64,000 nucleotides of DNA from Halarcobacter sp. (lineage in GTDB: Bacteria; Campylobacterota; Campylobacteria; Campylobacterales; Arcobacteraceae): contig OY781089.1 of the NCBI GenBank assembly GCA_963676565.1, forward strand, positions 2,048,001 through 2,112,000. Reading direction: 5' to 3'. Positions 22,046 to 44,962 of this stretch are shown here, piece by piece. The first letter of the stretch is position 1; the number at the start of each line of letters is the position of its first letter. The notes under the pieces are model-generated. The model was not told where the DNA came from and did not search any database. It saw only the letters and a list, made by a program, of their open reading frames with translations. A program made the translations under genes and the position numbers.

Positions 22046-23443
22046 TTATTTCTTAGGATATGTCATCTCTTCTGGCTTAACATATTTTTCAAAATCTTCT
22101 TTAGATAATAATCCTAAATTAATAGCTTCTTCTTTTAATGTTGAACCATTAGCATGAGCTGTTTTGGCTATTTTAGCAGCATTTTCGTAACCAATATATG
22201 GGTTTAATGCAGTTACTAGCATAAGTGAATCATTTAAATATTTATCTATATTTGTTCTATTTGCTTGAATTCCAATTGCACACTTATCATTAAATGCAAT
22301 CATGGTATCACTTAATAATCTAATTGATTGAATAATATTTAAAGCAATTACTGGTTTAAATACATTTAATTCAAAATTTCCTTGTGATGCAGCAACTGAA
22401 ATAGTTGTATGATTTCCCATAACCTGAACTGCCACCATTGTCATAGCTTCACTTTGAGTTGGATTTACTTTACCTGGCATAATAGAACTTCCTGGTTCAT
22501 TTTCAGGAATACTTAATTCACCAATTCCACATCTAGGACCTGAAGCTAACCATCTAATATCGTTTGCTATTTTCATTAAATTTGAGGCTAGAGCATTTAA
22601 AGCTCCACTTAATACTACTTCACCATCATGAGCTGTAAGTGCATGGAATTTATTTGGATGTGATTTAAATTTATATTTTGTAGAAGTTAATTCATTTAAA
22701 ACTTCACTTACCATATTTGAAAAATCTGGATGGGAGTTAAGGCCTGTTCCAACTGCTGTTCCACCAATTGCAAGTTCAACAATATATTTCATTACATCAT
22801 CTATTTGAGATAAAGCTTTATCAAGCATATCAACATATCCTGATAATTCTTGTCCCAGGGTAAGAGGAGTTGCATCTTGTAAGTGAGTACGTCCTATTTT
22901 TACTACATCATTAAAGTCCTTTACTTTTTGCTCTAGTGTAGCTTTTAAAGTATTTATTGCAGGGATTAATTTTTTTTGAACATCTAAAACAAAAGCAACT
23001 CTCATAGCAGTAGGGTAAGTATCGTTTGAACTTTGTCCTTTGTTTACATCATCATTTGGATGAACTAGTTTTTCAACTCTAAAATCACTTCCAAGAATCT
23101 CTGTAGCTCTATTTGCTACAACTTCATTTATGTTCATATTTGATTGAGTTCCAGAACCTGTTTGCCATACAACAAGTGGGAAATTCCCTCCTAGTTTACC
23201 TTCAATTACTTCATCACAAGCATTTGAAATAGCTTTAGTTTTTTCATTATTTAGTCTTTCCAATTTATTGTTAACTATTGCACAAGCTTTTTTTAAATAT
23301 GCAAAACCTTCTATAATTTCTTTTGGCATTTTTTCTTCACCAATTGGAAAGTTTTCAAGGCTTCTTTGTGTTTGTGCTGCCCAATATTTGTTATTTGGTA
23401 CTTTCATTTCACCCATTGTATCTTTTTCTATTCTATAATCCAT
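22046..23443 (-). CDS. fumC: Class II fumarate hydratase
   Basis: WQTGSGTQSNMN, GRTHLQDA and GSSIMPGKVNP signature. Confidence 0.98.
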   Translation of the reverse strand: MDYRIEKDTMGEMKVPNNKYWAAQTQRSLENFPIGEEKMPKEIIEGFAYLKKACAIVNNKLERLNNEKTKAISNACDEVIEGKLGGNFPLVVWQTGSGTQSNMNINEVVANRATEILGSDFRVEKLVHPNDDVNKGQSSNDTYPTAMRVAFVLDVQKKLIPAINTLKATLEQKVKDFNDVVKIGRTHLQDATPLTLGQELSGYVDMLDKALSQIDDVMKYIVELAIGGTAVGTGLNSHPDFSNMVSEVLNELTSTKYKFKSHPNKFHALTAHDGEVVLSGALNALASNLMKIANDIRWLASGPRCGIGELSIPENEPGSSIMPGKVNPTQSEAMTMVAVQVMGNHTTISVAASQGNFELNVFKPVIALNIIQSIRLLSDTMIAFNDKCAIGIQANRTNIDKYLNDSLMLVTALNPYIGYENAAKIAKTAHANGSTLKEEAINLGLLSKEDFEKYVKPEEMTYPKK

Positions 23444-23527
23444 TGTATATCCTTTTACGATAATATAAATTATAGTATAAAAAAATATATGGAATATTAG
23501 AAGTTTTTGTTAGGTAAAAATAAAAAA

Positions 23528-23553
23528 AGCTAAGAAGAAAAATCTTCTTAGCT
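23528..23553 (-). terminator. Intrinsic terminator after the class I fumarase gene
   Basis: AGCTAAGAAGA-AAAA-TCTTCTTAGCT with a T-run on the minus strand. Confidence 0.8.
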
Positions 23554-23591
23554 AATTATATATAAGTATTATTTATTAGGATATATAAAAT

Positions 23592-25085
23592 TTAAATCGC
23601 TCTCCACTTTTGTGGACCAGTAGTATGAATAGAAGTACCCTCTGTATCAACTGCAACAGTAACAGGCATATCTTTTACTTCAAATTCGTAAATAGCTTCC
23701 ATTCCCATCTCTTCAAATGCTAATACTTTTGCATCTTTAATAGATTGAGAAATTAAATAAGCTGCTCCACCTGTAGCAATTAAATACATAGATTTGTATT
23801 CTTTGATTAAATCAATAGTTGGTTGCTTTCTTTCAGCTTTACCAATCATACCCATGATTCCAATCTCCATCATATCTTTAGTAAACTTATCCATTCTAGT
23901 TGATGTAGTTGGTCCTGCAGGTCCTACTTTTTCATCTCTAACTGGATCAACTGGTCCAACGTAGTAGATAAATCTATCTTTTAAGTCAACACCATTTGGA
24001 AGTGGTTTCCCTGCATTTTTATACTCAACAATTTTTTTATGAGCAGCATCTCTTGCAGTTAAGATTTTTCCTGATAATAGTAAAGTATCTCCTGATTTAA
24101 ATTGAGATAAATTCTCTTTTGTTAAATCTTCAATATTTACTTTTTTAATTGTATCCATTGGTAGTTCTAAATCTGGCCAAAGGTCTAAATCTGGTTTTTC
24201 AAATTTTGCTGGTCCATTTCCATCAAGTTCAAAATGGATATGTCTAGTAGCTGCACAGTTTGGAATCATAGCAACAGGAAGTGATGCTGCATGACATGGA
24301 TAATCTAAAATTTTAACATCTAGAACTGTTGTTAATCCACCAAGTCCTTGTGCTCCAATTCCGATTTTATTAATGTCTTCATATAATTTTAGTCTTAATT
24401 CTTCTAAAGCATTTTGAGGACCTCTTTCTTTTAGTTCATGAATATCAACATGACCCATTAAAGCCTCTTTAGCTAATAGCATTGATTTTTCTGGATTACC
24501 ACCAATACCAATACCTAAGATTCCTGGAGGACACCATCCTGCTCCCATTTGCTCAACATTACTCATAACCCAATCATAAATTGAATCACTTGGATTTAAT
24601 ACAGCAAATTTAGATTTATTTTCAGATCCTCCACCTTTAGCTGCAACTGTAATATCTAATTTATCAGAGTTTGCATCAACTGAAAAGTGAATAACTGCTG
24701 GTGTATTATTTTTAGTATTTGTTCTAGCTCCTGCAGGATCTGCAACAACAGAGTATCTTAAAGTATTATCTGGGTCTGTATAACCTTTTGCTACACCTTC
24801 ATTTAATACATCTTCTAACTCTTTTGAAATATCTAAGTCAGCTTTTAAACCAACTTTTATAAAAATATTTACGCTCCCTGTATCTTGACATAAAGGTCTA
24901 TGTCCTAGTGCACACATTTTAGAGTTAATTAAAATTTGTCCAATAGCATTTTTTGCTGCTTCTGATTTTTCATTTTCATAAGCTTCTACCATCCCTTTAA
25001 CAAAATCTTCAGGGTGATAAAAAGATATATATTGACATGCGTCAGCAATACTTTGTACGATATCTTGTTCGGTGATTTTTCCCAT
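23592..25085 (-). CDS. Class I (Fe-S) fumarate hydratase, single chain
   Basis: RPLCQDTG, KGGGSENK, GWCPP, HAASLP, NCAATR and GPTTSTRMD; start set at the ATG at 25085 (MGKITEQ). Confidence 0.95.
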   Translation of the reverse strand: MGKITEQDIVQSIADACQYISFYHPEDFVKGMVEAYENEKSEAAKNAIGQILINSKMCALGHRPLCQDTGSVNIFIKVGLKADLDISKELEDVLNEGVAKGYTDPDNTLRYSVVADPAGARTNTKNNTPAVIHFSVDANSDKLDITVAAKGGGSENKSKFAVLNPSDSIYDWVMSNVEQMGAGWCPPGILGIGIGGNPEKSMLLAKEALMGHVDIHELKERGPQNALEELRLKLYEDINKIGIGAQGLGGLTTVLDVKILDYPCHAASLPVAMIPNCAATRHIHFELDGNGPAKFEKPDLDLWPDLELPMDTIKKVNIEDLTKENLSQFKSGDTLLLSGKILTARDAAHKKIVEYKNAGKPLPNGVDLKDRFIYYVGPVDPVRDEKVGPAGPTTSTRMDKFTKDMMEIGIMGMIGKAERKQPTIDLIKEYKSMYLIATGGAAYLISQSIKDAKVLAFEEMGMEAIYEFEVKDMPVTVAVDTEGTSIHTTGPQKWRAI

Positions 25086-25204
25086 TCTCCAAGTCCTTTT
25101 ATAAATTTTAAATTTCAATGATTATATCAAATATGAGATTATTAAAAAGAATGAGAATCATTAAAGTAATAGGAACAATTGCTCTTAGTTACACAACTTC
25201 TCAT

Positions 25205-27115
25205 TTAAACTAGAATTAATTTAATTGTAACCTTTGCTCCTAAGTACTTTTTGTTGTAGTAGTGGTATTCATGATTTTGTATATCTATAGTACCTTTTAA
25301 ATGTTTTGTTATAATCTCTTCTGTCATGTAAAGCCCAATTCCTGTCCCTTGAGATTGGTGTTTAGTTGTAAAGTATGGCTCAAAAATATGTTCAATAATC
25401 TTTTTGGGAACACCCCCAGCATTATCTAAAATAGTTAATATTATCTCATCATCTTTTACATATGAATCAATAAAAATATATTTATCCTCTTGGTCTATTT
25501 TTTCTAATTCATCTTTAGCATTATTTATAAGATTTATTACAACTTGAATAAGTTCATTTTTTAATCCATAGGTTTGAAAATCTTTTGTATTATTTACAAC
25601 AATGATATTTTTATCTTTTAATTGAGGACTAACTATATTTAGTGTAGCTTCAACAACATCTTTTATTGAAAACTCTACTTTTTCTTTATTTTTTGAGAAG
25701 TAAGTTCTAAAATCTTCGATTGTATTAGACAAGTATTTTGTGGCATCATTAATATGTTTTATACTCTTTTTAAAATCATCATCACTTAAAACTCCAATCT
25801 CTTTTTTAAGTTCCATTCCTGTGGAAGTACTAAGTATAATTGAAAGTGGTTGTCTCCATTGATGTGCTATATTATTTATCATAGAACCAATTGCAGCCAT
25901 TTTTGATTGGTGTGCTAGGGTTTCATTTTGTTTTGTAATATATTCAAGACTATCATCTATCTCTTTTTTATATCTGTCAAATTTACTTTTTAAAATTCTA
26001 GAAAGATTAATAGAAAGAATAAGTAAAACTAAAGAGAAAATAATAGTTGTTATAAAAATTTGTTCTAAGTCTTCATGAAACTTTTCTTTTAATAAGTTTT
26101 TCTCTTTTTCTACTCTTTGTTTTATATCATCTTCATAAAAACCTTTTCCTATTAGCATATCCCATTTATCAAAACCTCTAACATAGCTGGTTTTTTTCAT
26201 TGGCATATTTATACCAGGCTTTTTATTTTGTATATAACTTATATAGCCACTATTATTGTTTTTTGAAGTATTAATTGCATCGATAATAGTTTGGTTAGTT
26301 CTTGTGTCTTTTGCTTCAAGGGCATTTAACCCAATAATATCTTTTTTTATGTGGCTTAGATAGTTGCCATTATAATCAAGTGCAAAGATATATCCATTAT
26401 TTGGGTATTTTAAATTACTAATAAAATTTAATATTTTTACTTTTTGGTCATCTTCAAAATCTTTTATATATTCACCTGTACCAATAACCCAATCAAAAGG
26501 CTCAAAGTGTTTGTTATAACCAATTTTTTTATATTGTTTTTCTTTGTCAGAAGGTTTATAATATTTCCATTGAAAAAAACCTTCTTTTTTTGATTTAACA
26601 ATATTAATAATTTCTCTAATTACATACACCCCATTTGCATCTTGATAATTATAAAAATTTGTTCCTTCAAGCTCTCTTGCTAATGGGAGCAAAACACACT
26701 CATAATCAAAGGTATAAATAAAAAAATATCCCCTTTTATTGTTGAATCTAATCTCCCTTAATGCATCAGAAATCATTTTTTTTAGTATTTGCTTGTCAAG
26801 TTCTTTATTTTCATTATAAATATTCATTGCAATAGAATAAGCTTCATTAACTCTATCTTTAAGAGATGTTTTTAAGTTGTTTTCTGTAGAGTCTTGTTCT
26901 TTTTGAATAAGATGATAAACTCTATCAACTTGACTTTTTATAAGTTCTTTGTTGTTTTTTATATATTCTTGTTCAATAAATTTTTCTTGATTTTTAAAAT
27001 TAACTTCATTGTTTAGATATAAAGATAGAGATAGAAGAATAGAAATTATTATCGCTAGGATAGGGGGAGCATATTTAATGATCCTAATTATTTTATCTTC
27101 ATTTTTTGTGTTCAT
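25205..27115 (-). CDS. Sensor histidine kinase with tandem Cache_2 domains
   Basis: GYFFIY...D.NG Cache repeats; IAHQWRQP, DNAGG and GTGIGL. Confidence 0.9.
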   Translation of the reverse strand: MNTKNEDKIIRIIKYAPPILAIIISILLSLSLYLNNEVNFKNQEKFIEQEYIKNNKELIKSQVDRVYHLIQKEQDSTENNLKTSLKDRVNEAYSIAMNIYNENKELDKQILKKMISDALREIRFNNKRGYFFIYTFDYECVLLPLARELEGTNFYNYQDANGVYVIREIINIVKSKKEGFFQWKYYKPSDKEKQYKKIGYNKHFEPFDWVIGTGEYIKDFEDDQKVKILNFISNLKYPNNGYIFALDYNGNYLSHIKKDIIGLNALEAKDTRTNQTIIDAINTSKNNNSGYISYIQNKKPGINMPMKKTSYVRGFDKWDMLIGKGFYEDDIKQRVEKEKNLLKEKFHEDLEQIFITTIIFSLVLLILSINLSRILKSKFDRYKKEIDDSLEYITKQNETLAHQSKMAAIGSMINNIAHQWRQPLSIILSTSTGMELKKEIGVLSDDDFKKSIKHINDATKYLSNTIEDFRTYFSKNKEKVEFSIKDVVEATLNIVSPQLKDKNIIVVNNTKDFQTYGLKNELIQVVINLINNAKDELEKIDQEDKYIFIDSYVKDDEIILTILDNAGGVPKKIIEHIFEPYFTTKHQSQGTGIGLYMTEEIITKHLKGTIDIQNHEYHYYNKKYLGAKVTIKLILV

Positions 27116-31935: not shown

Positions 31936-32499
31936 ATGATTATAGATTATAAAGATGTAAACGATTTAAATAGATATAAAATTATGTCTGATACAGTTGT
32001 TCCAAGACCAATTGCATGGATTGTAACAGAAGATGAAGGTGTTATAAATGCAGCTCCTTTTTCATATTTTGTACCATTATCAAGTAATCCTGCTGTTGTT
32101 ATTGTTTCTATTGGTGTAAAAGAAGAGGGCGTTCCAAAGGATTCTTTACATAATATTTTGAAAAATAAAAAAGCTACTATTTGTTTTGTAAATAAAGACA
32201 ATACAGAGCAAGTTAAACTTTGTGCAAATATGCTTGATAAAGAAGAGAGTGAAATTGAAAAATTTGAGATTGATGTTCAAAAACCTTTAGATGATTTTCC
32301 TCCAATGATAAGCTCAACTCAAACTGCTTTATTTTGTGAATTTTATCAAAAAGTAGATATCCCAGGTAAAACAACGCCAGTTATATTAGAAGTAAAAAAA
32401 CAATACATTGAAGATGGAAGATTAGATGAAAGATCTCATGTTCATGTTGAAAATGTAGGTAGAAGTGGTGCTTTCTTTAAAGCAATGGTAGACTTATAA
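31936..32499 (+). CDS. Flavin reductase family protein
   Basis: VPRPIAWI, NAAPFSYF and KDS..NI motifs. Confidence 0.88.
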   Translation: MIIDYKDVNDLNRYKIMSDTVVPRPIAWIVTEDEGVINAAPFSYFVPLSSNPAVVIVSIGVKEEGVPKDSLHNILKNKKATICFVNKDNTEQVKLCANMLDKEESEIEKFEIDVQKPLDDFPPMISSTQTALFCEFYQKVDIPGKTTPVILEVKKQYIEDGRLDERSHVHVENVGRSGAFFKAMVDL

Positions 32500-32525: not shown

Positions 32526-34781
32526 TTAAAATTTATTTTCAGATACTTTTTTAACAACATTTTGTGCAATGTTATTAGTTTTTATTGCAATTGTATTTGT
32601 TACTTCAGCAATAGCTGCATTTTCTTGTGTAAATTTATCTAATTGACCAACAGCATCAGCTATTTGATTCATTCCTACACTTTGTTCTTTTGCTGCATTT
32701 GCAACATCACTTATAAGATTACTTGTATCATGAATTTTTGATTCCAATTCATTAAAACCTTCAATCATCTTATTACTAATACTTTTTCCATTGTCAGCTT
32801 TAGTTGTTGCATTTTCAACTAAATCTTTAATCTCTTTTGCTGCTTCTGCACTTCTTGCTGCAAGATTTCTTACTTCTTGGGCTACAACTGCAAACCCTTT
32901 TCCTGCTTCTCCTGCTGTTGCTGCTTCAACTGCTGCATTTAATGATAAAATATTTGTTTGGAAGGCAATTTGGTCAATTACTGAAATCGCTTCATTGATA
33001 TTTAGAACTGTTGTATTAATATCTTCCATCGCATTTACAGTGTTTGTTGCTAAGTTTTTACCTTCCGTAGCAGAACTTCTTGTCTCGTTTGATATTATAA
33101 GCATCTCTTGAGCTTTTTGACTTGTACTATTAATGTTACTTGTGATTTCATCAATTGATGCAGCCGTTTCTTCTAAAGATGCAGCTTGAGAAGTTGCATT
33201 ATTAGATAAAGTATTAACATTTGATGTTAATTCATTTGCATCATTTTGAAGTTCTATACCATCATTATGACTTGTTTTAAGCATCTCAATAATCATCTCA
33301 TTCATATTTGATATTTCATTTCCAATTTTACCTGAAGAAGCTTTATCTAGTTTTGCTGTAAAGTCTCTTTTTGAATAGCTTTCTAATACCATGCTTATAG
33401 TATTTAAATCTTTTCCTAAAATTGATTGAAGATTATCTAGCATTTGATTAAGTAAATCTCTTAATTCATTTAATGAATCTGTAGATGTTGTTTTATTGAT
33501 TCGTTTACTTAAATAACCTTGGCTCACATCATTTGCTATAGTTTTCACCTCTTCAATAATCATATTATCTTCAATTATTGAAGTTTTTATTTTGTCTATA
33601 TTTTCATTAATATTTTTAGCCATTAGTCCAAATTCATCATTTGAAGATATATTTATGGTGTCAACATCAGATGATTGTTTATTTAAAAATTTGAAAAATG
33701 ATTCCATTCCACTTGAAATAAAAGAAAGATTAGATTTTAATACTGTTATTGAAAGATAAACTACTATAGCTATAATTATTATTCCAATTAATGAGAAAAT
33801 AATTGAAATATTTCTAATGAAGTTTGCATCTGCTAAATATTCATTTTTTGGGGCATTCACAAAAATTGACCAATTAGTTTCTTCTGCACCTACTTTAAAA
33901 GGTTTAACAACATATTGTGAATCAAATCCATTTCCAAAAGATTCTTTTTCAAAAGAGTATGTTTTTAATTCTTTTACATTTTTTAACGCTTTGATGTAAT
34001 CTGGGTCATTTTTAGCAACTTCTAAAAGTTTTTTGTTGATAACTTCTTTTTTTGGATGTCCTACAATAATTCCATAATTATCAACAATAAAAAAATATCC
34101 ATTTTCATATATTTTTGTTTTTTTTGTCATCTGCAAAAATTTATTTAAATCAATTTCTGCACCTACTGCACCAGCAAACTCCCCATCTTTGTATAAAGGC
34201 ATTGCAATGGTTGTCATTAGGGTATCAACTCCAGCTACAGGGTAGACATAAGGTTTTGTAATAAAAAGTTTTCCAGCATCTTTAGGACCTTTTATCCAAC
34301 CATTTTCTTCATTATAAGATGAGCCTGAATCAACAATAATACCATCTTTCCCCCTTGTGATATATGGAGAGAAACTACCATCTTTTGCATACCAGTTTTT
34401 TGGATATTTACCATCTTTTACTGTAGTTTCATATAAGATATTAGCTTCTTTTGTAGACCACCATATTCCAAGCAATTGTTCATTATCCTTTAGCATAGAT
34501 TTGAACATTTGGATTGATTCTTTTTCCTTAAGAATAGTATTATGGTTTATAGCTTCTTGAAATTTAGCCCATATTGTCTTAACTAAACTAATTGATAAGT
34601 TAACATCACCTTGAACTTTTGATGCATTATTATTTGAAACTTCATTAAGGTAAGTTTCTGCACCTTTTTGTGCTGTATCAAAAGAATACTTTCCTAAGAT
34701 AAACATAGTCAAAGCGAATACAATCGTAGTTGTACCTAGTACTCTAAGTAATAACTTATTACCAAAACTAGAATTTTTCAT
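32526..34781 (-). CDS. Methyl-accepting chemotaxis protein with dCache sensor
   Basis: 2 TM segments; F.PY...W...ITKPYVYP dCache pattern; MCP signalling domain. Confidence 0.92.
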
Positions 34782-34848
34782 ACCCTCACCTTTTATTATT
34801 TTTTTATATTATATAATAAAAAAGTACGAGAAGAGTATTATTTTTTAA

Positions 34849-36096
34849 CTAGTTATCAAAATTCTCATCTTGTCTTGGATCCATTTCAGGTAATTCAGCC
34901 CCTGATGCAACAGGCATATTTACAAAGACACTCATATCTTTTGCTGGGACTTTATCTTTAGTAAGAGCATAAATACTTAAAAATAAACCTAAAACTGCAA
35001 AACTAAAAAATAAAAAATTAGGTTTAAAATAACTAATACCAAAACCTATAAGTAATGGTGAAATAAATGAACCAATCCCATATGTAAAAAGAAGTGTTCT
35101 ACTAATCTCAATCACGTCCTTATTTTCATCAACAACGTCATTTGCCCTTGCAACTGATAATGGATACATCGAAAATATTGTTAATCCCAATAAAAAACCT
35201 AGGATATATAAATATTCATTAATATCGGAAAATATAATAAACAAAATAGAGGTTATTGCAGTTAAAAAAGCAGTAATTGATATAAGTTTTCTTCTTCCAT
35301 ATTTATCTGATAGTAAACCTATTGGCCATTGAGCTAATAATCCCCCAATTAAACCTATAATCATAAAATTAGAAACTATTTCAAGGGAATCACTTTTTAA
35401 TAAAATATAAACTGGAATCATAGCAAAAAATCCACCAACAAAATATCCACTAATAAAACTTGATACGGTTGCAAGTGGTACCACTGAATAAATTTTGGGG
35501 AAACTATATCTTTCAAAGGGTTTTAATACTGGCTCTTTTATTTTTGTTAAAGATATAAATATAACTGAAAATAGAACTAAAACAGAACCAATTGCAAATA
35601 TAAATTGTTTAAAATGTTCATCAATATTTAAAAACAATTGTCCAATTGCTGTTGAAAGATAAAAGATGATTGTATAAATTGCCAAAATTTTACTTCTGTC
35701 CTCTTCGCTACTTTTTTCATTTAGCCAGCTTTCAAGTATTATCAATAGTGCATAAAAAGAAAATCCAGAGATTACTCTAAGAATTGTCCATAAAATAACA
35801 TCAAAAAACAAAGAGTGTATTAAGAATGTTATTACCATAAGTGAAGTAAAAGCAGAAAAACTTCTTATATGTCCAACTGTTGAGATAATTTTTTGACTAA
35901 ATATTGAAGATAAAACTGCACCTAAAAAGAAAGAACCGTTAATTAGTCCAATAAGGGAACTACTTATACCCATCTCTTTTAAATATACACCTATAAACGT
36001 AAGTATCATCCCATAACCAATTGCTAAAAAAGCAATTGCAAAAAACATAGAAGAGATAGGAAAAACAATTTTTTTTAAACTCATATTGTGACTCAT
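34849..36096 (-). CDS. MFS transporter (YcaD-like)
   Basis: About 12 TM segments; VGHIRSF, ESWLNE and QWPIG.LSD.YGRR. Confidence 0.88.
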   Translation of the reverse strand: MSHNMSLKKIVFPISSMFFAIAFLAIGYGMILTFIGVYLKEMGISSSLIGLINGSFFLGAVLSSIFSQKIISTVGHIRSFSAFTSLMVITFLIHSLFFDVILWTILRVISGFSFYALLIILESWLNEKSSEEDRSKILAIYTIIFYLSTAIGQLFLNIDEHFKQFIFAIGSVLVLFSVIFISLTKIKEPVLKPFERYSFPKIYSVVPLATVSSFISGYFVGGFFAMIPVYILLKSDSLEIVSNFMIIGLIGGLLAQWPIGLLSDKYGRRKLISITAFLTAITSILFIIFSDINEYLYILGFLLGLTIFSMYPLSVARANDVVDENKDVIEISRTLLFTYGIGSFISPLLIGFGISYFKPNFLFFSFAVLGLFLSIYALTKDKVPAKDMSVFVNMPVASGAELPEMDPRQDENFDN

Positions 36097-36963: not shown

Positions 36964-37812
36964 TTACTCTACAATTTGATGTAATTTAGAACATCTACTT
37001 AGAAAAGTATCCATCCCACACATATCATTGTACATATCATCAAAAGAATGAAAGTGTGCATCATATATGTATACAAAGATTTCATCACCTTTTTCTAAAA
37101 AGTGTTTTTTACCAAATTCTGCGTAAGCTGTTGCCCCAGCGGCAATTAATAAGCCCTTTGCATCTTTTGCATTTTTTGTAAATTGTGTTAACTCTTCTAA
37201 TGGTCCCATATCCTCTTGGGTATTTAGTTTTTCAATCATCCAGTCTTTTAATTGTGTGAAAAAATAGCTATATGAATTAACCGCAGAAGTGGTACCATAA
37301 TCATGAACAACACCATTTCTTTTTATAAAAGAAGCAATATGATATCTATTTAATATCCCTTCTTCTGTGAAATTATCAATCTTAATTGCATCTCTTGAGA
37401 TACCCTTTGTATTCTTTCCCCAGTTTTTTTTAGTACTTAATTTATTTCCATCTTGTATTCTTATTGAAAAGTCATTAAAAGCAGAAAAGTATTTTGGAAT
37501 AATATCAACAACTTTTTCATTTTCATAAATAAAGTCACAAATTAATGCAACTTCAGCTTCAACTTGTAAATTGTCCTCTTCTCTTCCATGGGTTTTAATA
37601 GTTTCATCACATATAGGAAATGTACCTAAAAATGAATCATGCCCTGGAATATAAAAGGGGAACATACCTTTTGGAGCATCTTTTTCTTTTGTTTGTATAA
37701 CTGCAAATTCATCAGCTTCACCAGCTTCTCCTAAATGATTTGCAAAGTTTCCTGCAACACCAAACCCTAAATAATCTTTTAATTCTTCTAAATCTATATA
37801 TTTTTTTTCCAT
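36964..37812 (-). CDS. DUF5718-type protein with fumarylacetoacetate-hydrolase-superfamily-like motifs
   Basis: GVAGNFANHL, QVEAEVAL, AFNDFSIR, KKNW, IAAGAT and FLEKGDEI. Confidence 0.7.
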   Translation of the reverse strand: MEKKYIDLEELKDYLGFGVAGNFANHLGEAGEADEFAVIQTKEKDAPKGMFPFYIPGHDSFLGTFPICDETIKTHGREEDNLQVEAEVALICDFIYENEKVVDIIPKYFSAFNDFSIRIQDGNKLSTKKNWGKNTKGISRDAIKIDNFTEEGILNRYHIASFIKRNGVVHDYGTTSAVNSYSYFFTQLKDWMIEKLNTQEDMGPLEELTQFTKNAKDAKGLLIAAGATAYAEFGKKHFLEKGDEIFVYIYDAHFHSFDDMYNDMCGMDTFLSRCSKLHQIVE

Positions 37813-37911: not shown

Positions 37912-38025
37912 TTATCTTTGACGTGTACAGCGACTCTCACAATTTTTTACTTTTGCTTTCTTGACTTCGACGAGCCCAAGGGCAATAGCAAGTTTTGTTG
38001 TGACAGTGACAATTAAGTTTTTCAT
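37912..38025 (-). CDS. Unannotated 37-aa small ORF / candidate leader peptide MKNLIVTVTTKLAIALGLVEVKKAKVKNCESRCTRQR
   Basis: AAGGA RBS 6 nt before the ATG; below the ORF-track length cutoff; a stem-loop overlaps its 3' half. Confidence 0.55.
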   Translation of the reverse strand: MKNLIVTVTTKLAIALGLVEVKKAKVKNCESRCTRQR

Positions 38026-38044: not shown

Positions 38045-38075
38045 TATAGATAAGAAGTTTAACTTCTTATCTATA
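38045..38075. terminator. Terminator hairpin at the end of the CitE/MaoC operon
   Basis: TATAGATAAGAAGTT-T-AACTTCTTATCTATA perfect inverted repeat. Confidence 0.75.
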
Positions 38076-38096: not shown

Positions 38097-39080
38097 TTAA
38101 GAGAAAAATCTAGTGTTTACTTCATCCATTAATTTAGCACCAGAAAAATGTGCTCTTTGAACTAATTCCCAGAAATATCTATATGTAGCTCTATCGTGTA
38201 ATTCACCATCATATTGAATTGGTCCCCACTCAGCATCTTGTGCATTTAATAAAATATTTTGTGCAGCTTCTAATTCTGTAAAGTCTGGTTTCATAGCATC
38301 TACAATTGCTTGTACTTGTGTTGGGTAAATTGACCACATTCTCATAAATCCAAACTCATTTCTTGCTCTTTCCGCATCTTTATAAGTTTGATATGGGTTT
38401 TTAAGATCAAGTGTTACATTGTGACAAGGAATAACATGGTTTTGAATAGCCGCTTGCGCAACTTTTGCTTTAGCTGCACCAATTAGTCTATGATCAAATT
38501 GACCAGGACTTCTCATATTAGATGCAGGAATCGCCCCTTGATAACCAGAAACAAAGTCCATTAATCCAAAGTCTAAAACTTGAAGCCATGGTAAAGTTGC
38601 AATTTTTTCAACATCTTGTAATGCTCCGTGAGTTTCAATTAAGATATGAATTGGAATCTCTCTTGTAATACCAGATTTTTTAGCTACCTCTTGAATATAC
38701 TCAATTTGAGTTTTAACATCTTCATAAGAAGTTGATTTTGGTAATGTAATATATGCTAATTTTTCTCCAGCACCTGGAACTAGAATATCAACATCTTGTC
38801 TCCAATCTGGATGTGAGAAATCGTGAATTCTTGTACCAGCCATTGCATATGGGTTAGCATCAGAGTTAACAACTCTAACAATCATTTCAGCGTGTTCAAC
38901 TTCTTTTCCAGTTTCTGCTCCATCTTCGCAGTCACAAGTAATATCAAATACAGGTCCAAGTTTCTTTTGCATTTCGAAACCTTTTAAAATTAGTTTCTCG
39001 CTTCCTGCAAAGTGCTCACAAGTTGGGATAATTGGTAAAGATTTACCAGATTCAAATAGTGCTTCGTTTGGATGTGTCAT
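38097..39080 (-). CDS. CitE/malyl-CoA lyase (HpcH/HpaI aldolase-citrate lyase) family protein
   Basis: CDCEDGA, TRIHD, LIETHG, FGLMDF, WSIYPTQ and GELHD motifs. Confidence 0.88.
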   Translation of the reverse strand: MTHPNEALFESGKSLPIIPTCEHFAGSEKLILKGFEMQKKLGPVFDITCDCEDGAETGKEVEHAEMIVRVVNSDANPYAMAGTRIHDFSHPDWRQDVDILVPGAGEKLAYITLPKSTSYEDVKTQIEYIQEVAKKSGITREIPIHILIETHGALQDVEKIATLPWLQVLDFGLMDFVSGYQGAIPASNMRSPGQFDHRLIGAAKAKVAQAAIQNHVIPCHNVTLDLKNPYQTYKDAERARNEFGFMRMWSIYPTQVQAIVDAMKPDFTELEAAQNILLNAQDAEWGPIQYDGELHDRATYRYFWELVQRAHFSGAKLMDEVNTRFFS

Positions 39081-39107
39081 AATAATTTCCTCTCTTTAAA
39101 TTTATTT

Positions 39108-40181
39108 TTATTTCTTTTTTGTTTTTTTCTTTGGAATGATTACAGTGTAATCTAAATCAAGTACTACATTTTTTAAGTACTTACCATCTTCACCTTTTGG
39201 ATTTTCAATTTCTGAACTTTTTTGATTTTTAACAGCAACTGTTCTTAATCTTAATAATCCTAAGTCATCTCTTTTGTGATCAATTACATCTAAAACCTCA
39301 GTATATGCATATATTGTATCACCAGCATATGTTGGGTTACAGTGAGCTCCACTATTAATTGCATAAACCCATTGAGCGTTTTGTAAACCATTAAATGAAA
39401 TTGCCCTTGCAATTGATATTACAATACCACCATACATCAATCTCTCTCCCATAGGAGTAGACTTCATCATATGGTCATTGAAGTGTACCTTTGCATTGTT
39501 TTGGTATAACTTTGTTGCTAAAGTATGGTCACTATCATCAATTGTAATGCCCTCAGGGTGATTAAGTCTTTCTCCAACTTCATAATCTTCGAAGAAATAC
39601 TCCCCACCGGTTGCATTAGTATCAACCATGTCAATCTCTGGGATATTGATATCTTCAACTATTGGTGTTGATTCAGCAAATGTTGGAACATCATTGATAC
39701 CAAGCATAGTTTCTTTGTCTTTTTTGTGAACCATAACCCATCTTTTGAAGTTTAACACCTCTTTATCTTGCTCGTTGTATCCAATTGAATGAACATAAAC
39801 AACTCCAGATTTTCCATTTGAATTCTCTTTTAATCCAATTACGGTTGATTCCATTCTAACTGTATCCCCAATAAATACTGGGTTAGGAAAAGAGATTTCA
39901 GCATAACCTAAATTTGCAATTGCATTTAAAGATATATCTTGAACCGATTTCCCAAATGTTAAATGGAACATTAAAATATCATCAATTGGTCTTTCGTTGT
40001 ATCCAATCTCTTGTGCTAATTCATCAGATGAATGTAAAGCAAATCTAGAACCAGTGAAGGCGATGTATAAAGATACTTCACCTTCTGTTATAGTTCTTGG
40101 AAGAGGGTGGATAATTTTTTGTCCAATTGAAAAATCTTCAAAAAAGTTACCAACATTTATTTTTGTACTAATTTTAGACAT
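39108..40181 (-). CDS. mch: Double MaoC hot-dog dehydratase, mesaconyl-C1-CoA hydratase-like
   Basis: GNFFEDF..GQ.I.H..PRT, FGKSVQDISLNAIANLGY, IGLKENSNGKSGVVYV and ATKLYQN.AKVHF closely follow known Mch sequences. Confidence 0.8.
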   Translation of the reverse strand: MSKISTKINVGNFFEDFSIGQKIIHPLPRTITEGEVSLYIAFTGSRFALHSSDELAQEIGYNERPIDDILMFHLTFGKSVQDISLNAIANLGYAEISFPNPVFIGDTVRMESTVIGLKENSNGKSGVVYVHSIGYNEQDKEVLNFKRWVMVHKKDKETMLGINDVPTFAESTPIVEDINIPEIDMVDTNATGGEYFFEDYEVGERLNHPEGITIDDSDHTLATKLYQNNAKVHFNDHMMKSTPMGERLMYGGIVISIARAISFNGLQNAQWVYAINSGAHCNPTYAGDTIYAYTEVLDVIDHKRDDLGLLRLRTVAVKNQKSSEIENPKGEDGKYLKNVVLDLDYTVIIPKKKTKKK

Positions 40182-40190
40182 TTACCTTCC

Positions 40191-42710
40191 TTATTTTCCA
40201 AATAGGTTTTGACCTAAAGATTTATATGTATCATAAAGTGTAATCATCTTTTTAGCCCATTTAATTCTACACTTGTCAACAAGTTTATCTTTAAATTGAA
40301 TAACCTCTTTACCATCTTTTTCAGCTTCTTCGTATTTAGAAATCATCTCTTCATACTCTTGAACCTCTTTTTGAGTTGGAGTAAAGATATCATTGATGTA
40401 CTCAACTTGAACTGGGTGGATTAATGCTTTACCATCAAATCCTAAATTAAATGCATCTTTTGTTGAATCTTCACAAGCAAATTCATCATGAACATCATTA
40501 TGTGGTCCATCAATAACTGTTTTACCATATGCTTTTGCTGATAATGCAATACGTGCTAGGTAATTAAACATAGCTTTAGAACCTTTTTTAATATCAATTT
40601 GAAGTCTATTTGCTAAGCTATTTGAACCAACAACAATAACCTCAGTTTTCTTTGAAGCTTCACAAATATCAGGTGAATTTAAAATTGCCAATGGAGTTTC
40701 AATCATCACCATCATTGTTAAGTCAGGATTAACTTCATTAATTAATCTTTCTGCTTCTAAAACTTGCTCAACTGTTTCAATTTGTGAAAATAAAATTGCA
40801 TCAATTTCAATCTCTCGTGCAAGTTCTAAATCTTTTGTTAATTCTTCAGTTCCAATGTTATTAACTCTTAAAACTCTTTCTGATTCACCAAATTTAGAAC
40901 CCTCTTCAGCATAAACTTCTCTAATTGTATTTCTTGCAATCTCTTTTTGTTCATGTAAAATAGCTTCAATATCAAATACAACAGAATCTGCTAAAACAGT
41001 TTTTGCTTTTTTTACATACTTTTTATTATAAGCTGGAACAAACATCATTGATCTTCTAGCTTTATATTCAACAATCTCTTCACCTGTTTCTTGCGAATGG
41101 TATTGTTCATGTAATTGTTTAACAAGTTGTTTTCTTAAAACTTTTCCATTTTTAGTTCTTGGATAATCTTTCATCCCAAAAATAACTTTTGGAGCTTTAT
41201 ATTTAGCAAGATTTGTTTGAGAAAATGCAAGAATCTCTTGCTCTTGCTCTTCTGTTAAATCTTCATGTCCAATAACTGCAATAGCAACTAAAGTTTTATC
41301 TTTTTCTAAATCAAGACCAAAGGCAACACAATCAGCTACTAAATCGTGAGTTTTTACAACTCTTTCAATCTCATGTGGAGATACTCTAAATCCAAACGTG
41401 TTAATGATGTCATCTTTTCTACCAATGAACCAAATATATCCATCTTTATCTCTTTTTGCATAATCACCTGTAAAGAAATATCCATCATGTCTAGCTTTAG
41501 CTGTTTCTTCTTCTAATTGCCAGTATTCTAAGAATAAACCTGGATCATCTTCACCTATACAGATCATCCCTTCTTCTTCTAATCCAACTTCTTCTAAAGT
41601 ATCTGGATCAAGTAGTTTTACAATGTGTCCTGGCTGAACAAATCCTGCACTTCCAGGTCTAATTGGATTGTTTTTAGAGTGTGAAATATAATATGAACAC
41701 TCAGACATACCAATTGCTTCAAAGATATCTTGATTAAATCTTTCTCTCCATAAACCTAACATCTCATCAGATAAATGCTCACCAGCAGACATACAGTATC
41801 TTAATGATGGACAATCTTTAATTGAGAAATCAGTTTTTTGAATGATTTGTCTATAAATTGTTGGAACCCCAATGAAAATTGTACATTGGTGTTTTTTAAT
41901 TAAATCAATCCATGTTGAAGCATCATTTGCTCCTTCATATGCAATTACTGTATGACCATTAAATAATGGATCCATAAGTGCAGAACCTAATACATAAGTC
42001 CAGTTAAATTTACCAGAGTGCATGATTCTATCATTCTCTTTAAAATCAAACCAATATTCAGTTGCAGGAGTTCTACCAACTAATGATCTATGAGAGTGTA
42101 AAACTCCCTTTGGATAACCAGTTGTTCCTGATGTATATACTAAATATGCAGGCTCACCAGATTTTGATGGATAATGATTAGGTGTTTTATCTGTATTTGC
42201 TAAAATCTCATTTAAAGCATATACTTTCATACCCTTTGGCACTTTATAATCTGCAACACTATCTACACCAGCAACAATAATTGTTTTTAGATTATCAACA
42301 TTTTCTAAATATGGAACTAGATTTTCAAACATAGTTGCACTCATAACAATTGCACTAGCTTGTGAATCTTCAGCAAGATATTTAACCTCTGAACCACTTA
42401 AAAGTGTAGACGTTGGTACTGCAATAATTCCAGCTTTAATCGCACCAAAAAATGAGATTGGATATGCTAAAGAGTTTTTTAAACAAACTAAAACTCTATC
42501 TCTAGCTCCAATTCCAATTGATGTTAGGAAGTTACAAACCTGGTCTGATTTTTCTGATAACTCTTTATATGTAATCTCATCAGTACCAAGTTTATCATCT
42601 TCAATGATCATTGCAGTACTATTTTCTTTTGCTGTTCCTAAATGACTTGATGTACAAGCTACACCAATATTTAAAAATTCAGGTACTTCAATTTTTACAT
42701 TTGAACTCAT
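40191..42710 (-). CDS. AMP-forming acyl-CoA ligase fused to a C-terminal degenerate CitE-family domain
   Basis: YTSGTTGYPKGV, GMSEC, FFTGD, GRKDD and PRTKNGKV; then RRSMMFVP, LRVN, MIETP and GFDGKALIHP. Confidence 0.88.
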   Translation of the reverse strand: MSSNVKIEVPEFLNIGVACTSSHLGTAKENSTAMIIEDDKLGTDEITYKELSEKSDQVCNFLTSIGIGARDRVLVCLKNSLAYPISFFGAIKAGIIAVPTSTLLSGSEVKYLAEDSQASAIVMSATMFENLVPYLENVDNLKTIIVAGVDSVADYKVPKGMKVYALNEILANTDKTPNHYPSKSGEPAYLVYTSGTTGYPKGVLHSHRSLVGRTPATEYWFDFKENDRIMHSGKFNWTYVLGSALMDPLFNGHTVIAYEGANDASTWIDLIKKHQCTIFIGVPTIYRQIIQKTDFSIKDCPSLRYCMSAGEHLSDEMLGLWRERFNQDIFEAIGMSECSYYISHSKNNPIRPGSAGFVQPGHIVKLLDPDTLEEVGLEEEGMICIGEDDPGLFLEYWQLEEETAKARHDGYFFTGDYAKRDKDGYIWFIGRKDDIINTFGFRVSPHEIERVVKTHDLVADCVAFGLDLEKDKTLVAIAVIGHEDLTEEQEQEILAFSQTNLAKYKAPKVIFGMKDYPRTKNGKVLRKQLVKQLHEQYHSQETGEEIVEYKARRSMMFVPAYNKKYVKKAKTVLADSVVFDIEAILHEQKEIARNTIREVYAEEGSKFGESERVLRVNNIGTEELTKDLELAREIEIDAILFSQIETVEQVLEAERLINEVNPDLTMMVMIETPLAILNSPDICEASKKTEVIVVGSNSLANRLQIDIKKGSKAMFNYLARIALSAKAYGKTVIDGPHNDVHDEFACEDSTKDAFNLGFDGKALIHPVQVEYINDIFTPTQKEVQEYEEMISKYEEAEKDGKEVIQFKDKLVDKCRIKWAKKMITLYDTYKSLGQNLFGK

Positions 42711-42726
42711 AATTTCAACTCCCTAA

Positions 42727-43860
42727 TTAGATTTGACCATAAGGCCAGTTTTCTTTAAATGTATGTAATGGCATTTTATTTAATACTGTTACAGCAAACT
42801 CATAATCTTCTTTACTTAAACTATTAAGTGCATTTGCTCTTAAGATATTTTGTAAAGATTTACCAAACATTGGTGGATCTAACATTTCACCTTCATATCT
42901 AATAGCTCCACTTAATAAAGCATCTGTTTCAATAGCTGCTTTTAAAATATCTACATCTTTTGCAATTTCTTTTGGAGATGGAGTAAATGCTACTTTACAA
43001 ACATTGATATGATTAGGAGTAATAACTTGTTTACCTGTTAATCCCATTGCATATTCTCTTTGTGCATGTGCATAAACATGTCTTGATGCATCATCACCAT
43101 GCAAATCTAACCATCTTCTAATATCTTTTTTCTCAACGCAAGAATCTGGTAATGAATTTGGAGTAAGTAAAACTTCAACCCCACCAATTACACCTTTACC
43201 TTGTATTCTAGCTTCCATAGTAAGCATATTAAAAAATGTTTCTAATTCATCAATCCAACCCTCAGGAGTGATTTTGTATGACATAGCTTTTGAAAAGTCA
43301 TGGATACCAAATACTAAGTGTTGTACAGTTGAAAATTGCATTAACTTATCAGCAATCTTAAGTGATTTTGGGTGTTCAATAATTGGTTGAATTTGTAAAT
43401 TCGATCCAATTGAAATTAACCAAGATGATAAATCTCTAATCTCAGCTGCTCCATATACTTCACCAGCTTTTGCTAAAACAATTGCATCAATATATTTGTG
43501 AATTTGTTTTAACATTTTTAAATCTTCTTCGTATTCAGCTGTTCTAAATGGATTAATTCTTACAGCAATTTGAAAATCTCTTTCAGGAAACTTTGGAAGT
43601 TCTTGAATTAGTAATTCCCTTGACATCTCTTTTTGTCTACATCCATCTTCTAAGTCAAATAAAACTGTATGAGCTTTTGTTTTGTAAGCATGTTTTTGTA
43701 ATCTATATTTAGCTTGCTCCATAGTTTCATAAGTTCCATCAAGTGGATTAAACTTAATTGGTGGATAATAAATTTGAATACCTGGCCATTTTCCCCCTAG
43801 CACAGGTGATAAATCGTCATTTGCAGTTAATTTTGATAAATCTACGAAAGATGAATTCAT
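42727..43860 (-). CDS. Divergent CitE/malyl-CoA lyase family protein
   Basis: LFDLEDGC, VRINP, IIEHP, FGIHDFS, GKQVITP and GEMLDPP. Confidence 0.85.
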   Translation of the reverse strand: MNSSFVDLSKLTANDDLSPVLGGKWPGIQIYYPPIKFNPLDGTYETMEQAKYRLQKHAYKTKAHTVLFDLEDGCRQKEMSRELLIQELPKFPERDFQIAVRINPFRTAEYEEDLKMLKQIHKYIDAIVLAKAGEVYGAAEIRDLSSWLISIGSNLQIQPIIEHPKSLKIADKLMQFSTVQHLVFGIHDFSKAMSYKITPEGWIDELETFFNMLTMEARIQGKGVIGGVEVLLTPNSLPDSCVEKKDIRRWLDLHGDDASRHVYAHAQREYAMGLTGKQVITPNHINVCKVAFTPSPKEIAKDVDILKAAIETDALLSGAIRYEGEMLDPPMFGKSLQNILRANALNSLSKEDYEFAVTVLNKMPLHTFKENWPYGQI

Positions 43861-44048
43861 AATTTTTCCCTCTTTTCCTAATAATTTCTGTTAAAAATCT
43901 TATTCAGATTGATTTCTGATAGACGAATTAATCCATATATAAAATAAACTGAATCATACTTTTAAAAATTAATTTAAATTTTAAGAAAATTTTTATTATT
44001 GTTGTAGGCACCATAAAATAGGGCTTTTTTAAAGTGAGAATATGATAG

Positions 44049-44063
44049 TTTCACAATGTGAGA
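44049..44063. promoter_or_regulatory. Putative IclR operator TTTCACAATGTGAGA
   Basis: TCACA-A-TGTGA dyad in the divergent intergenic region between the operon and the IclR gene. Confidence 0.5.
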
Positions 44064-44194
44064 AAATTTTTTTCAAAACTCTTATAATGTAAAAAATTTT
44101 TTTCAAAATTTGTACAATTTTGTAGCTTATTTAGGAACAAAATATTTTTTATAGTTCAAAAAGGAGATAAATTCTTTATACATTTATTGAAAAA

Positions 44195-44962
44195 ATGATA
44201 AAATCAAAAAAAATTAATAGAAGAGATAAATTGCAAAATAGTCCAAACAAGTCTTTTAAAAAAGGGCTTCAAGTCTTAAAAGAGATTATGAAAGCCAATA
44301 AACCAGTTACAGCTAATACTTTATGTCAAAAACTTGAAATAGATAAAAGTACTATGTCTAGATTAGTTACAACTTTGATGAGTGAAGATTTTATTGAATA
44401 TAAAGGTGATTCAAAAGAGATTATTTTAAGTGACATATTAAGAAAAATTGTATTTAAAAATGATAGAGAAAAAATTATAGAAAAAACTGCTGCTCTTTTA
44501 GATCAGATTTTTCATCTAACCAATGAAGCGGCATATATCTACATATTGGATAATAACTTAGCTTTAAATCTAAATCAAATAGATATGTCAACTCGGGTTT
44601 TAAAAACTAGAGATTCAATTGGATTACATTCACCTTTACATGCTAATGCTTTTGGAAAAGTTCTTATTGCTTTTACCCCTGAAGTAAAAATAGATTCTTT
44701 AGAATTAACAAAATATACATCTTATACAATAACATGTAAAACAAAATTACAAAAAGAGTTAGATCTAATCAAAGAAAGAGGTTATTCAATTGGTACTGAA
44801 GAGTATGAATTTGGATTGAAATCTGTTGCTGTTCCTTATTTTGATAAGCAAAATAAATTCATAGGTGCAGTTGGAATATCTGGATTATCAGTTAGACTTG
44901 AAGATGAAAAACTTCATAAATTTGGGCAAGAGATTTTTAAATTAGTTAATAGTTACAACTAA
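44195..44962 (+). CDS. IclR family transcriptional regulator
   Basis: N-terminal wHTH (LEIDKSTMSRLVTTL); PLHANAFGKVL, RGYS...EYEFG...VAVP; true start may be the TTG at 44231. Confidence 0.92.
   Translation: MIKSKKINRRDKLQNSPNKSFKKGLQVLKEIMKANKPVTANTLCQKLEIDKSTMSRLVTTLMSEDFIEYKGDSKEIILSDILRKIVFKNDREKIIEKTAALLDQIFHLTNEAAYIYILDNNLALNLNQIDMSTRVLKTRDSIGLHSPLHANAFGKVLIAFTPEVKIDSLELTKYTSYTITCKTKLQKELDLIKERGYSIGTEEYEFGLKSVAVPYFDKQNKFIGAVGISGLSVRLEDEKLHKFGQEIFKLVNSYN

Follow-up and report, generated by a model that had tools for sequence, protein, structure and literature searches.

Which compound is processed by a gene cassette that combines three CitE-type domains, a double-MaoC hydratase and an acyl-CoA ligase? 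The question arises from a 64,000-nucleotide stretch of Halarcobacter sp. (assembly GCA_963676565.1, contig OY781089.1, positions 2,048,001 to 2,112,000), hereafter the window, which is part of a complete 3.34-Mb genome (99.97%). The reading that we favour, with about as much doubt as confidence, is that the cassette encodes an ATP-driven CoA-ester module built around mesaconyl-C1-CoA, which would convert the five-carbon acid mesaconate to glyoxylate and propionyl-CoA and so feed the methylcitrate cycle. Domains were called with Pfam and NCBIfam profiles on the translations of open reading frames (ORFs), and homology to solved proteins was assessed by alignment with PDB entries. The cassette and its regulator are, in window coordinates:

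42727..43860, minus strand: CitE_A, putative CitE/HpcH-type CoA-ester lyase, 377 aa (ORF list, Pfam/NCBIfam)
40191..42710, minus strand: fusion of an AMP-forming acyl-CoA ligase with a CitE-type domain (ligase::CitE), 839 aa (ORF list, Pfam/NCBIfam, motif counts)
39108..40181, minus strand: Mch-type double-MaoC hydratase, predicted to act on mesaconyl-C1-CoA / beta-methylmalyl-CoA, 357 aa (alignments with PDB 4e3e and 8hgn)
38097..39080, minus strand: CitE_B, putative CitE-type lyase of the 3QQW/3R4I clade, 327 aa (PDB alignments, motifs)
44195..44962, plus strand: IclR-family regulator, divergent from the cassette (Pfam/NCBIfam)

The four cassette genes are separated by 16, 9 and 27 nt in the ORF list. 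HpcH_HpaI/CitE-type domains were called in CitE_A, in CitE_B and at residues 553-766 of the 839-aa protein, an AMP-binding domain at residues 33-523 of the latter, and MC_hydratase/MaoC domains in the 357-aa protein. The layout described in an earlier note on this DNA is borne out, with four close-packed minus-strand genes, a terminator-like hairpin 3' of the fourth, and a dyad in the gap to the divergent IclR gene. The same note had found the three CitE-type domains very different from each other, and partial BLASTP alignments indeed gave mutual identities of 23-30%.

For conservation, 80 loci out of 165 confirmed relatives were surveyed, with one genome per species. The order CitE_A, ligase::CitE, Mch, CitE_B was the same in 80/80 loci, as far as the contigs reach; the scattering of the genes among relatives, which the earlier note had named as an outcome that would speak against it, was not seen. 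The public genome nearest to the studied one is labelled Halarcobacter, with a fusion protein 98% identical, and identities of the fusion range from 77-98% in Arcobacteraceae through 66-70% in Sulfurospirillum to 63-67% in gammaproteobacterial metagenome-assembled genomes (MAGs; Sedimenticolaceae, Chromatiales and others). Prevalence was scored in 300 Campylobacterales plus the studied genome (301 in total): a full-length fusion was present in 27/32 Arcobacteraceae and 5/31 members of family f22, all other families being without it; the remaining matches were ANL paralogs of about 30% identity. We conclude that the operon is real and widely conserved.

Its surroundings fall into several architectures. 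The cassette is followed by a class I fumarase and a DUF5718 gene at 26/80 loci; IclR, cassette and DUF5718, the type of the studied locus, were found at 21, the cassette alone at 14 (gammaproteobacteria and cut contigs) and IclR with the cassette at 5, the remainder being smaller classes. A divergent IclR gene was present at 33 of the 80 loci. The 58 ORFs flanking nine gammaproteobacterial and Sulfurospirillum loci were varied; a 4HBT thioesterase (2), a sodium:solute symporter (3) and a fumarase (1) among them are hints only.

An orthologous cluster, ab1917-ab1921 of A. butzleri RM4018, was described by Miller et al. (2007, PLoS One; PMC2147049). In their passage on it the genes come in the same order as here (CitE-like, Acs::CitE fusion, enoyl-CoA hydratase, CitE-like) and are followed by a class I ('anaerobic') fumarase, whereas at the studied locus the fumarase lies 13 kb off and an IclR gene is divergent. 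The passage also proposes, from sequence alone, a route through mesaconyl-CoA, methylmalyl-CoA and citramalate. The earlier note had called its pathway undescribed in Campylobacterota; with the cluster and a similar pathway in print since 2007, that claim falls. The order cassette, class I fumarase, DUF5718, which matches the description of ab1917-ab1921, was found in 4/4 fetched genomes of a small-genome genus (g2). A biochemical study of the cassette was not found in the open-access literature (main texts).

A similar set of parts is seen in the 'methylcitric acid cycle' cluster of Methylophilaceae, which in the account of Beck et al. (2014; PMC4109929) holds cyl1, maoC, cyl2, cyl3, prpE and fum with prpCBD, and also mdh, sdhABCD and aconitase. 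Vorobev et al. (2013; PMC3728764), in their passage on it, report high expression in situ and state that the metabolite processed is unknown. The two are likened here by parts list: in Methylophilaceae cyl3 and the ligase are separate genes in one cluster with prp, whereas in the studied genome they form one protein, and the prp genes are 2 Mb distant.

The hydratase, the lyases and the fusion protein

An Mch step followed by CitE-type cleavage of beta-methylmalyl-CoA to glyoxylate and propionyl-CoA is known from the 3-hydroxypropionate bi-cycle, in its second cycle (Chloroflexus Mcl, Mch, Mct and Meh), and from the haloarchaeal methylaspartate cycle. These steps are also given by Zarzycki and Kerfeld in their account of CitE-like lyases (PMC3832036). 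Unlike those pathways, the present system has no family III CoA transferase, methylaspartase or second hydratase, and has an AMP-forming ligase instead. In the reading that we favour, mesaconate would be taken up, or formed from (S)-citramalate through the mesaconase activity of a class I fumarase. The ligase half of the 839-aa protein would convert free mesaconate to mesaconyl-C1-CoA, standing in for the CoA transferases of both cycles, and the Mch-type hydratase would form beta-methylmalyl-CoA, which one intact CitE lyase would cleave to glyoxylate and propionyl-CoA. Propionyl-CoA would then enter the methylcitrate cycle (prpB, prpC, acnD, prpF), and the second intact lyase may interconvert glyoxylate plus acetyl-CoA with malyl-CoA, or acetyl-CoA plus pyruvate with citramalyl-CoA. 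The ligase would also fix the direction, from free acid to CoA ester. Substrates and flux direction, here and below, are all what we infer from gene order, conservation, domains, residues and co-occurrence.

The Mch identity of the 357-aa protein is the firmest assignment in the cassette, as judged from its alignments. It matches the Chloroflexus enzyme (4e3e) with an E-value of 6e-110 over residues 5-352, and Methylorubrum MeaC (8hgn) with 4e-102 over residues 7-351, that is, over its full length in both cases. In MeMeaC, the residues around bound malate are Phe71, Ser79, Asn85, Arg142, Asn226, His231, Tyr248 and Gly249 (PMC10164722). All eight are kept, as F76, S84, N90, R147, N228, H233, Y250 and G251 when mapped from the alignment. 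The haloarchaeal Mch equivalog of NCBIfam gave 88.4 of 560 bits.

Breakdown of itaconate has to be weighed at this point, with the ligase forming itaconyl-CoA, the hydratase (S)-citramalyl-CoA, and a CitE lyase splitting the latter into acetyl-CoA and pyruvate. NCBIfam does place RipB_Ich on the hydratase (E 1e-31) and RipC_Ccl on all three CitE domains, but both lie far under their cut-offs (109.9 of 340 bits, and 113 of 375 at best), and it is Mch that the hydratase resembles from end to end, with every site residue retained. One lyase would suffice for such a route, against three domains in the cassette, and the links to fumarase and prpB would be left unexplained. We consider itaconate a very improbable substrate.

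CitE-like lyases use an Arg, a Mg-binding Glu and Asp, and a lid Asp, according to the section on these residues in PMC3832036. CitE_B keeps every catalytic motif (DxED, Arg, Mg-binding Glu and Asp, lid Asp) in 75/75 sequences. CitE_A, which has an N-terminal extension and an insertion, keeps DLED, Arg, Glu, Mg-Asp and lid Asp in 79/79. The solved relatives of CitE_A are weak (CLYBL, E 3e-11), its homologs carry nothing but generic names among 1183 clusters, and it is at least 74% identical among the best 120 homolog clusters; a search of plasmids for CitE_A gave no match. CitE_B aligns end to end with PDB 3qqw (E 3e-138) and 3r4i (E 1e-99), two solved CitE-like proteins of unknown function, listed as merely CitE-like in the relevant part of PMC3832036. 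Relatives of this clade on Cupriavidus, Azoarcus and Variovorax replicons differ in setting, being next to a pyruvate carboxylase, or to a CoA transferase, a second lyase and an IclR gene. The CitE-type lyases are less than 30% identical to solved Mcl enzymes. The mark of Mcl2-type malyl-CoA thioesterases, a Glu in place of the lid Asp (described in PMC3832036), is absent from all three, each of which has Asp there.

The 839-aa protein consists of a ligase (about residues 30-540), whose usual adenylation motifs read as intact, and of a CitE-type domain (about 545-839) that departs from the other two. Among 77 sequences, Arg and lid Asp are kept in 77 and Glu in 70; the second acid of DxED is replaced in 71, by Ala (58) or Gly (13). 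The place of the Mg-binding Asp (GxxD) reads G-S-N-x, with an invariant Asn ahead of the lost position and x being K in 47, N in 13, T in 11, H in 3, S in 2 and another residue in 1. Standalone relatives of the domain, at about 30% identity, retain DLED and GxxD with both acids. As Zarzycki and Kerfeld call the metal ligands absolutely conserved in the superfamily, in the section concerned (PMC3832036), a domain lacking the canonical Mg-Asp is probably not an ordinary lyase; whether it serves as a thioesterase or as an assembly domain would be a guess. Three CitE-family domains had been counted in the earlier note: two of them, CitE_A and CitE_B, keep their catalytic residues, and the fused domain probably drops out as a standard lyase.

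This result bears on the direction proposed by Miller et al., whose passage allows for lyase activity in each of the three CitE domains and takes the route through a reversible synthetase step. There, malate would be converted to malyl-CoA and split into acetyl-CoA and glyoxylate; glyoxylate and propionyl-CoA would give beta-methylmalyl-CoA, then mesaconyl-CoA, mesaconate and citramalate, and finally pyruvate and acetyl-CoA. The proposal is in print (PMC2147049) and uses the same gene set; the fusion of a ligase with a lyase-type domain would be apt for activating malate or citramalate and cleaving the product at once, and a fumarase by the cassette could provide the malate. However, the fused CitE domain is without its Mg-binding Asp, the AMP-forming ligase would have to reverse at the mesaconyl-CoA step unless a separate thioesterase took part, and there is no family III CoA transferase for the C1-C4 shift and a single MaoC hydratase. 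We therefore rate this direction as improbable, and return to the conversion of mesaconate to glyoxylate and propionyl-CoA.

Sources and sinks in the genome

According to the earlier note, the partners that accompany Mch elsewhere, such as family III CoA transferases and Ccr, are lacking in the window; for these two, the complete genome gives the same picture. No family III CoA transferase and no methylmalonyl-CoA mutase were matched in it, Ccr gave nothing over cut-off, and isocitrate lyase was not found, PrpB being the sole match to that family. The methylcitrate cycle is the sole propionyl-CoA sink found in the studied genome, with prpB-prpC-acnD-prpF at C1:55889-61955, 2 Mb from the cassette. 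Together with the complete Mch site, these results fit the chemical core of the pathway suggested in the earlier note, from C5 acid to CoA ester and, through Mch, to glyoxylate and propionyl-CoA.

Co-occurrence points in the same direction. In the 301 genomes, prpB was present in 33/33 with a full-length fusion, vs 23/268 without; within family f22 the figures were 5/5 and 13/26. In one genome of the Sulfurospirillaceae, the cassette lies between prpE-prpB-prpC-prpD, 6 kb upstream, and a gene for a class I fumarase, 1 kb downstream. A canonical malate synthase was found in 7/81 Arcobacteraceae genomes and isocitrate lyase in 0/81, so that glyoxylate made by the cassette would need a CitE-type partner. 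The malate synthase G of the studied genome lies in an allantoin cluster (C1:934625-944458: PuuE allantoinase, allantoicase, ureidoglycolate lyase, allantoin permease, then urease genes), where, as we read the gene order, glyoxylate from purine breakdown would be served by its own malate synthase.

Class I fumarases are known to have mesaconase as a side activity, and a gene of this type is a candidate source of mesaconate:

23592..25118, minus strand: class I fumarase, 13 kb from the cassette in the studied genome (profile search, locus survey)

A class I fumarase lies directly 3' of CitE_B, on the same strand, at 35/80 loci. By its position, the cassette-linked enzyme suits a mesaconase, or plain fumarase.

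The same genes could form a glyoxylate bypass free of isocitrate lyase, in which the C5 acid is made inside the cell and the core reactions are those of the favoured reading. An intact lyase would join acetyl-CoA and pyruvate to citramalyl-CoA, hydrolysis (perhaps by the fused CitE domain) would release citramalate, and the class I fumarase would give mesaconate; ligase, Mch and lyase would follow as above. The methylcitrate cycle would give back pyruvate together with succinate, and glyoxylate with acetyl-CoA would give malate, the net outcome being one C4 acid from two acetyl-CoA. Every conserved gene would find a use (two lyases, ligase, Mch, fumarase), and the prpB, isocitrate lyase and malate synthase counts above agree with it, as does the Methylophilaceae cluster, where mdh, sdhABCD, fum and aconitase join these parts and expression in situ is high (PMC4109929, PMC3728764). 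On the other hand, acetate assimilation by pyruvate synthase may operate in these bacteria, each turn would cost two ATP equivalents, thioester hydrolysis by a cassette CitE is a supposition, and no such cycle was found in the open-access literature. We regard this bypass as unlikely. A more specific form of it is likewise doubtful: cassette, class I fumarase and methylcitrate cycle would together make an isocitrate-lyase-free glyoxylate cycle, with the fusion protein doing the work of Mct, the intramolecular CoA transferase: its degenerate CitE domain would hydrolyse the thioester, and its ligase would re-ligate the acid at the other carboxyl group at the expense of ATP. The sequence fits both an external C5 acid and one made in the cell from acetyl-CoA and pyruvate.

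Several points weigh against the favoured conversion of mesaconate. Methylaspartase was not found in the studied genome, and the classical source of mesaconate is therefore missing. The solved relatives nearest to the ligase (medium-chain, 4-hydroxybutyrate, benzoate and acetate ligases) act on monocarboxylates, and thus say little about its substrate. None of the three CitE domains reached an NCBIfam equivalog cut-off (RipC/Ccl, CitE, haloarchaeal Mcl), the best scores being those of the fused domain (citE 152.6 of 443.4, RipC as given above) and those of CitE_A and CitE_B lower; the split of roles among the domains is therefore a guess. The genomes with a fusion are kin, so that 33/33 overstates the link with prpB, and of five gammaproteobacterial cassette MAGs two had prpB over cut-off, two others methylmalonyl-CoA mutase, and one neither. 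The class I fumarase nearest to the cassette has as neighbours a class II fumarase or aspartase and a sensor histidine kinase of the dCache_2 type (window 22046-27115, minus strand), which we read as a C4-dicarboxylate setting. Finally, A. butzleri is reported, as data not shown in the passage cited, not to grow on acetate, propionate or citrate (PMC2147049).

A glutamate-mutase-like set lies in one minus-strand row about 35 kb from the cassette, outside the window (C1:2124585-2129148), and comprises mutS over cut-off, mutE at 381.9 of 390.1 bits, a weak GlmL-like gene and an AMP-forming (ANL) ligase. A route from glutamate to mesaconate through this set was considered and not linked to the cassette, as methylaspartase was not found.

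Neighbouring genes and regulation

In many relatives, the class I fumarase and DUF5718 are part of an extended cluster, which the earlier note had overlooked. In the window the second of these is:

36964..37812, minus strand: DUF5718, predicted FAH-fold protein (Pfam, structure model, locus survey)

DUF5718 was found 3' of the cassette in Arcobacteraceae only. An AlphaFold model built with 44 diverse homologs (pLDDT 95.1) has a predicted fumarylacetoacetate-hydrolase (FAH) fold: all top Foldseek matches in the PDB were FAH-family proteins (E 5e-9, TM about 0.5), which act on 2-oxo and 2,4-dioxo acids and include the oxaloacetate decarboxylases YisK and Cg1458. The Pfam FAH profile gave no match to DUF5718. 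In 45 sequences E85 and E87 are nearly invariant and D114 invariant, and these three are the putative metal ligands. A 36-codon ORF (window 37915-38024, minus strand), with a G+C content above its surroundings, lies between the cassette hairpin and DUF5718.

Further 3', beyond DUF5718, lie genes for a dCache_1 chemoreceptor and an MFS transporter (window 32526-36096, minus strand). A homolog of the chemoreceptor is found downstream of the cassette on the same strand at 16/80 loci, which may hint at an external substrate. A 187-aa flavin-reductase-like gene occurs near the cassette both in the window (31936-32499, plus strand) and at a Sulfurospirillaceae locus (L063, 14009-14572). AceE/AceF adjoin the cassette at 8/80 loci only, and the link to pyruvate dehydrogenase was dropped; of the pathway in the earlier note, the supply of acetyl-CoA from the adjacent dehydrogenase thus goes the way of its novelty, while the chemical core fits the findings above.

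Two regulatory features were located around the cassette:

38045..38075, minus strand: terminator-like hairpin 3' of CitE_B (hairpin search)
44047..44066, no strand assigned: imperfect dyad in the spacer between IclR and cassette, candidate operator (spacer comparison)

The hairpin, 22 nt past the CitE_B stop, has a 14-bp stem with just 3 G-C pairs. Terminator-like hairpins were found at 4 sites, vs 2.3 expected in shuffles, and the terminator call is therefore weak taken alone. The spacer of 334 nt is AT-rich, with many imperfect repeats. Within it, both 9-mers of the dyad TTTTCTCAC-N2-TGTGAAACT are present in 15/18 IclR-linked spacers compared. A second word, GAATTAATCCATA (window 43925-43937), about 65 nt upstream of the CitE_A start, is kept in 12-15 of the 18 and is a candidate promoter element or second operator. 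The top NCBIfam rows for the IclR protein were BhcR, PcaR, KdgR and IclR, all far under cut-off. Metatranscriptome contigs 85-99% alike (four runs, three studies) between them cover all four cassette genes and weakly suggest that the cassette is probably expressed in nature; stretches that lack coverage carry no information. As these contigs stem from relatives and may include DNA, and a gene junction is bridged by a single 196-nt contig, co-transcription is not established.

What the cassette would mean for Arcobacteraceae

Having been in print since 2007, the cluster is weak as a discovery claim. New here are the degenerate metal site of the fused CitE domain, the FAH fold predicted for DUF5718, the eight kept residues of the Mch site, and the counts of fumarase, prpB, malate synthase and isocitrate lyase. 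The module is under strong constraint, as seen in the identity of CitE_A, in Arcobacteraceae, some Sulfurospirillaceae, sulfur-oxidising gammaproteobacteria and Methylophilaceae. If the core of the favoured reading is true, this would be a fourth setting for Mch and a beta-methylmalyl-CoA lyase, with a ligase replacing the CoA transferase, and the 3QQW/3R4I clade would gain a function. If the bypass were true, it would explain how C4 acids are made from C2 units in bacteria free of isocitrate lyase that are common in wastewater and sediments.

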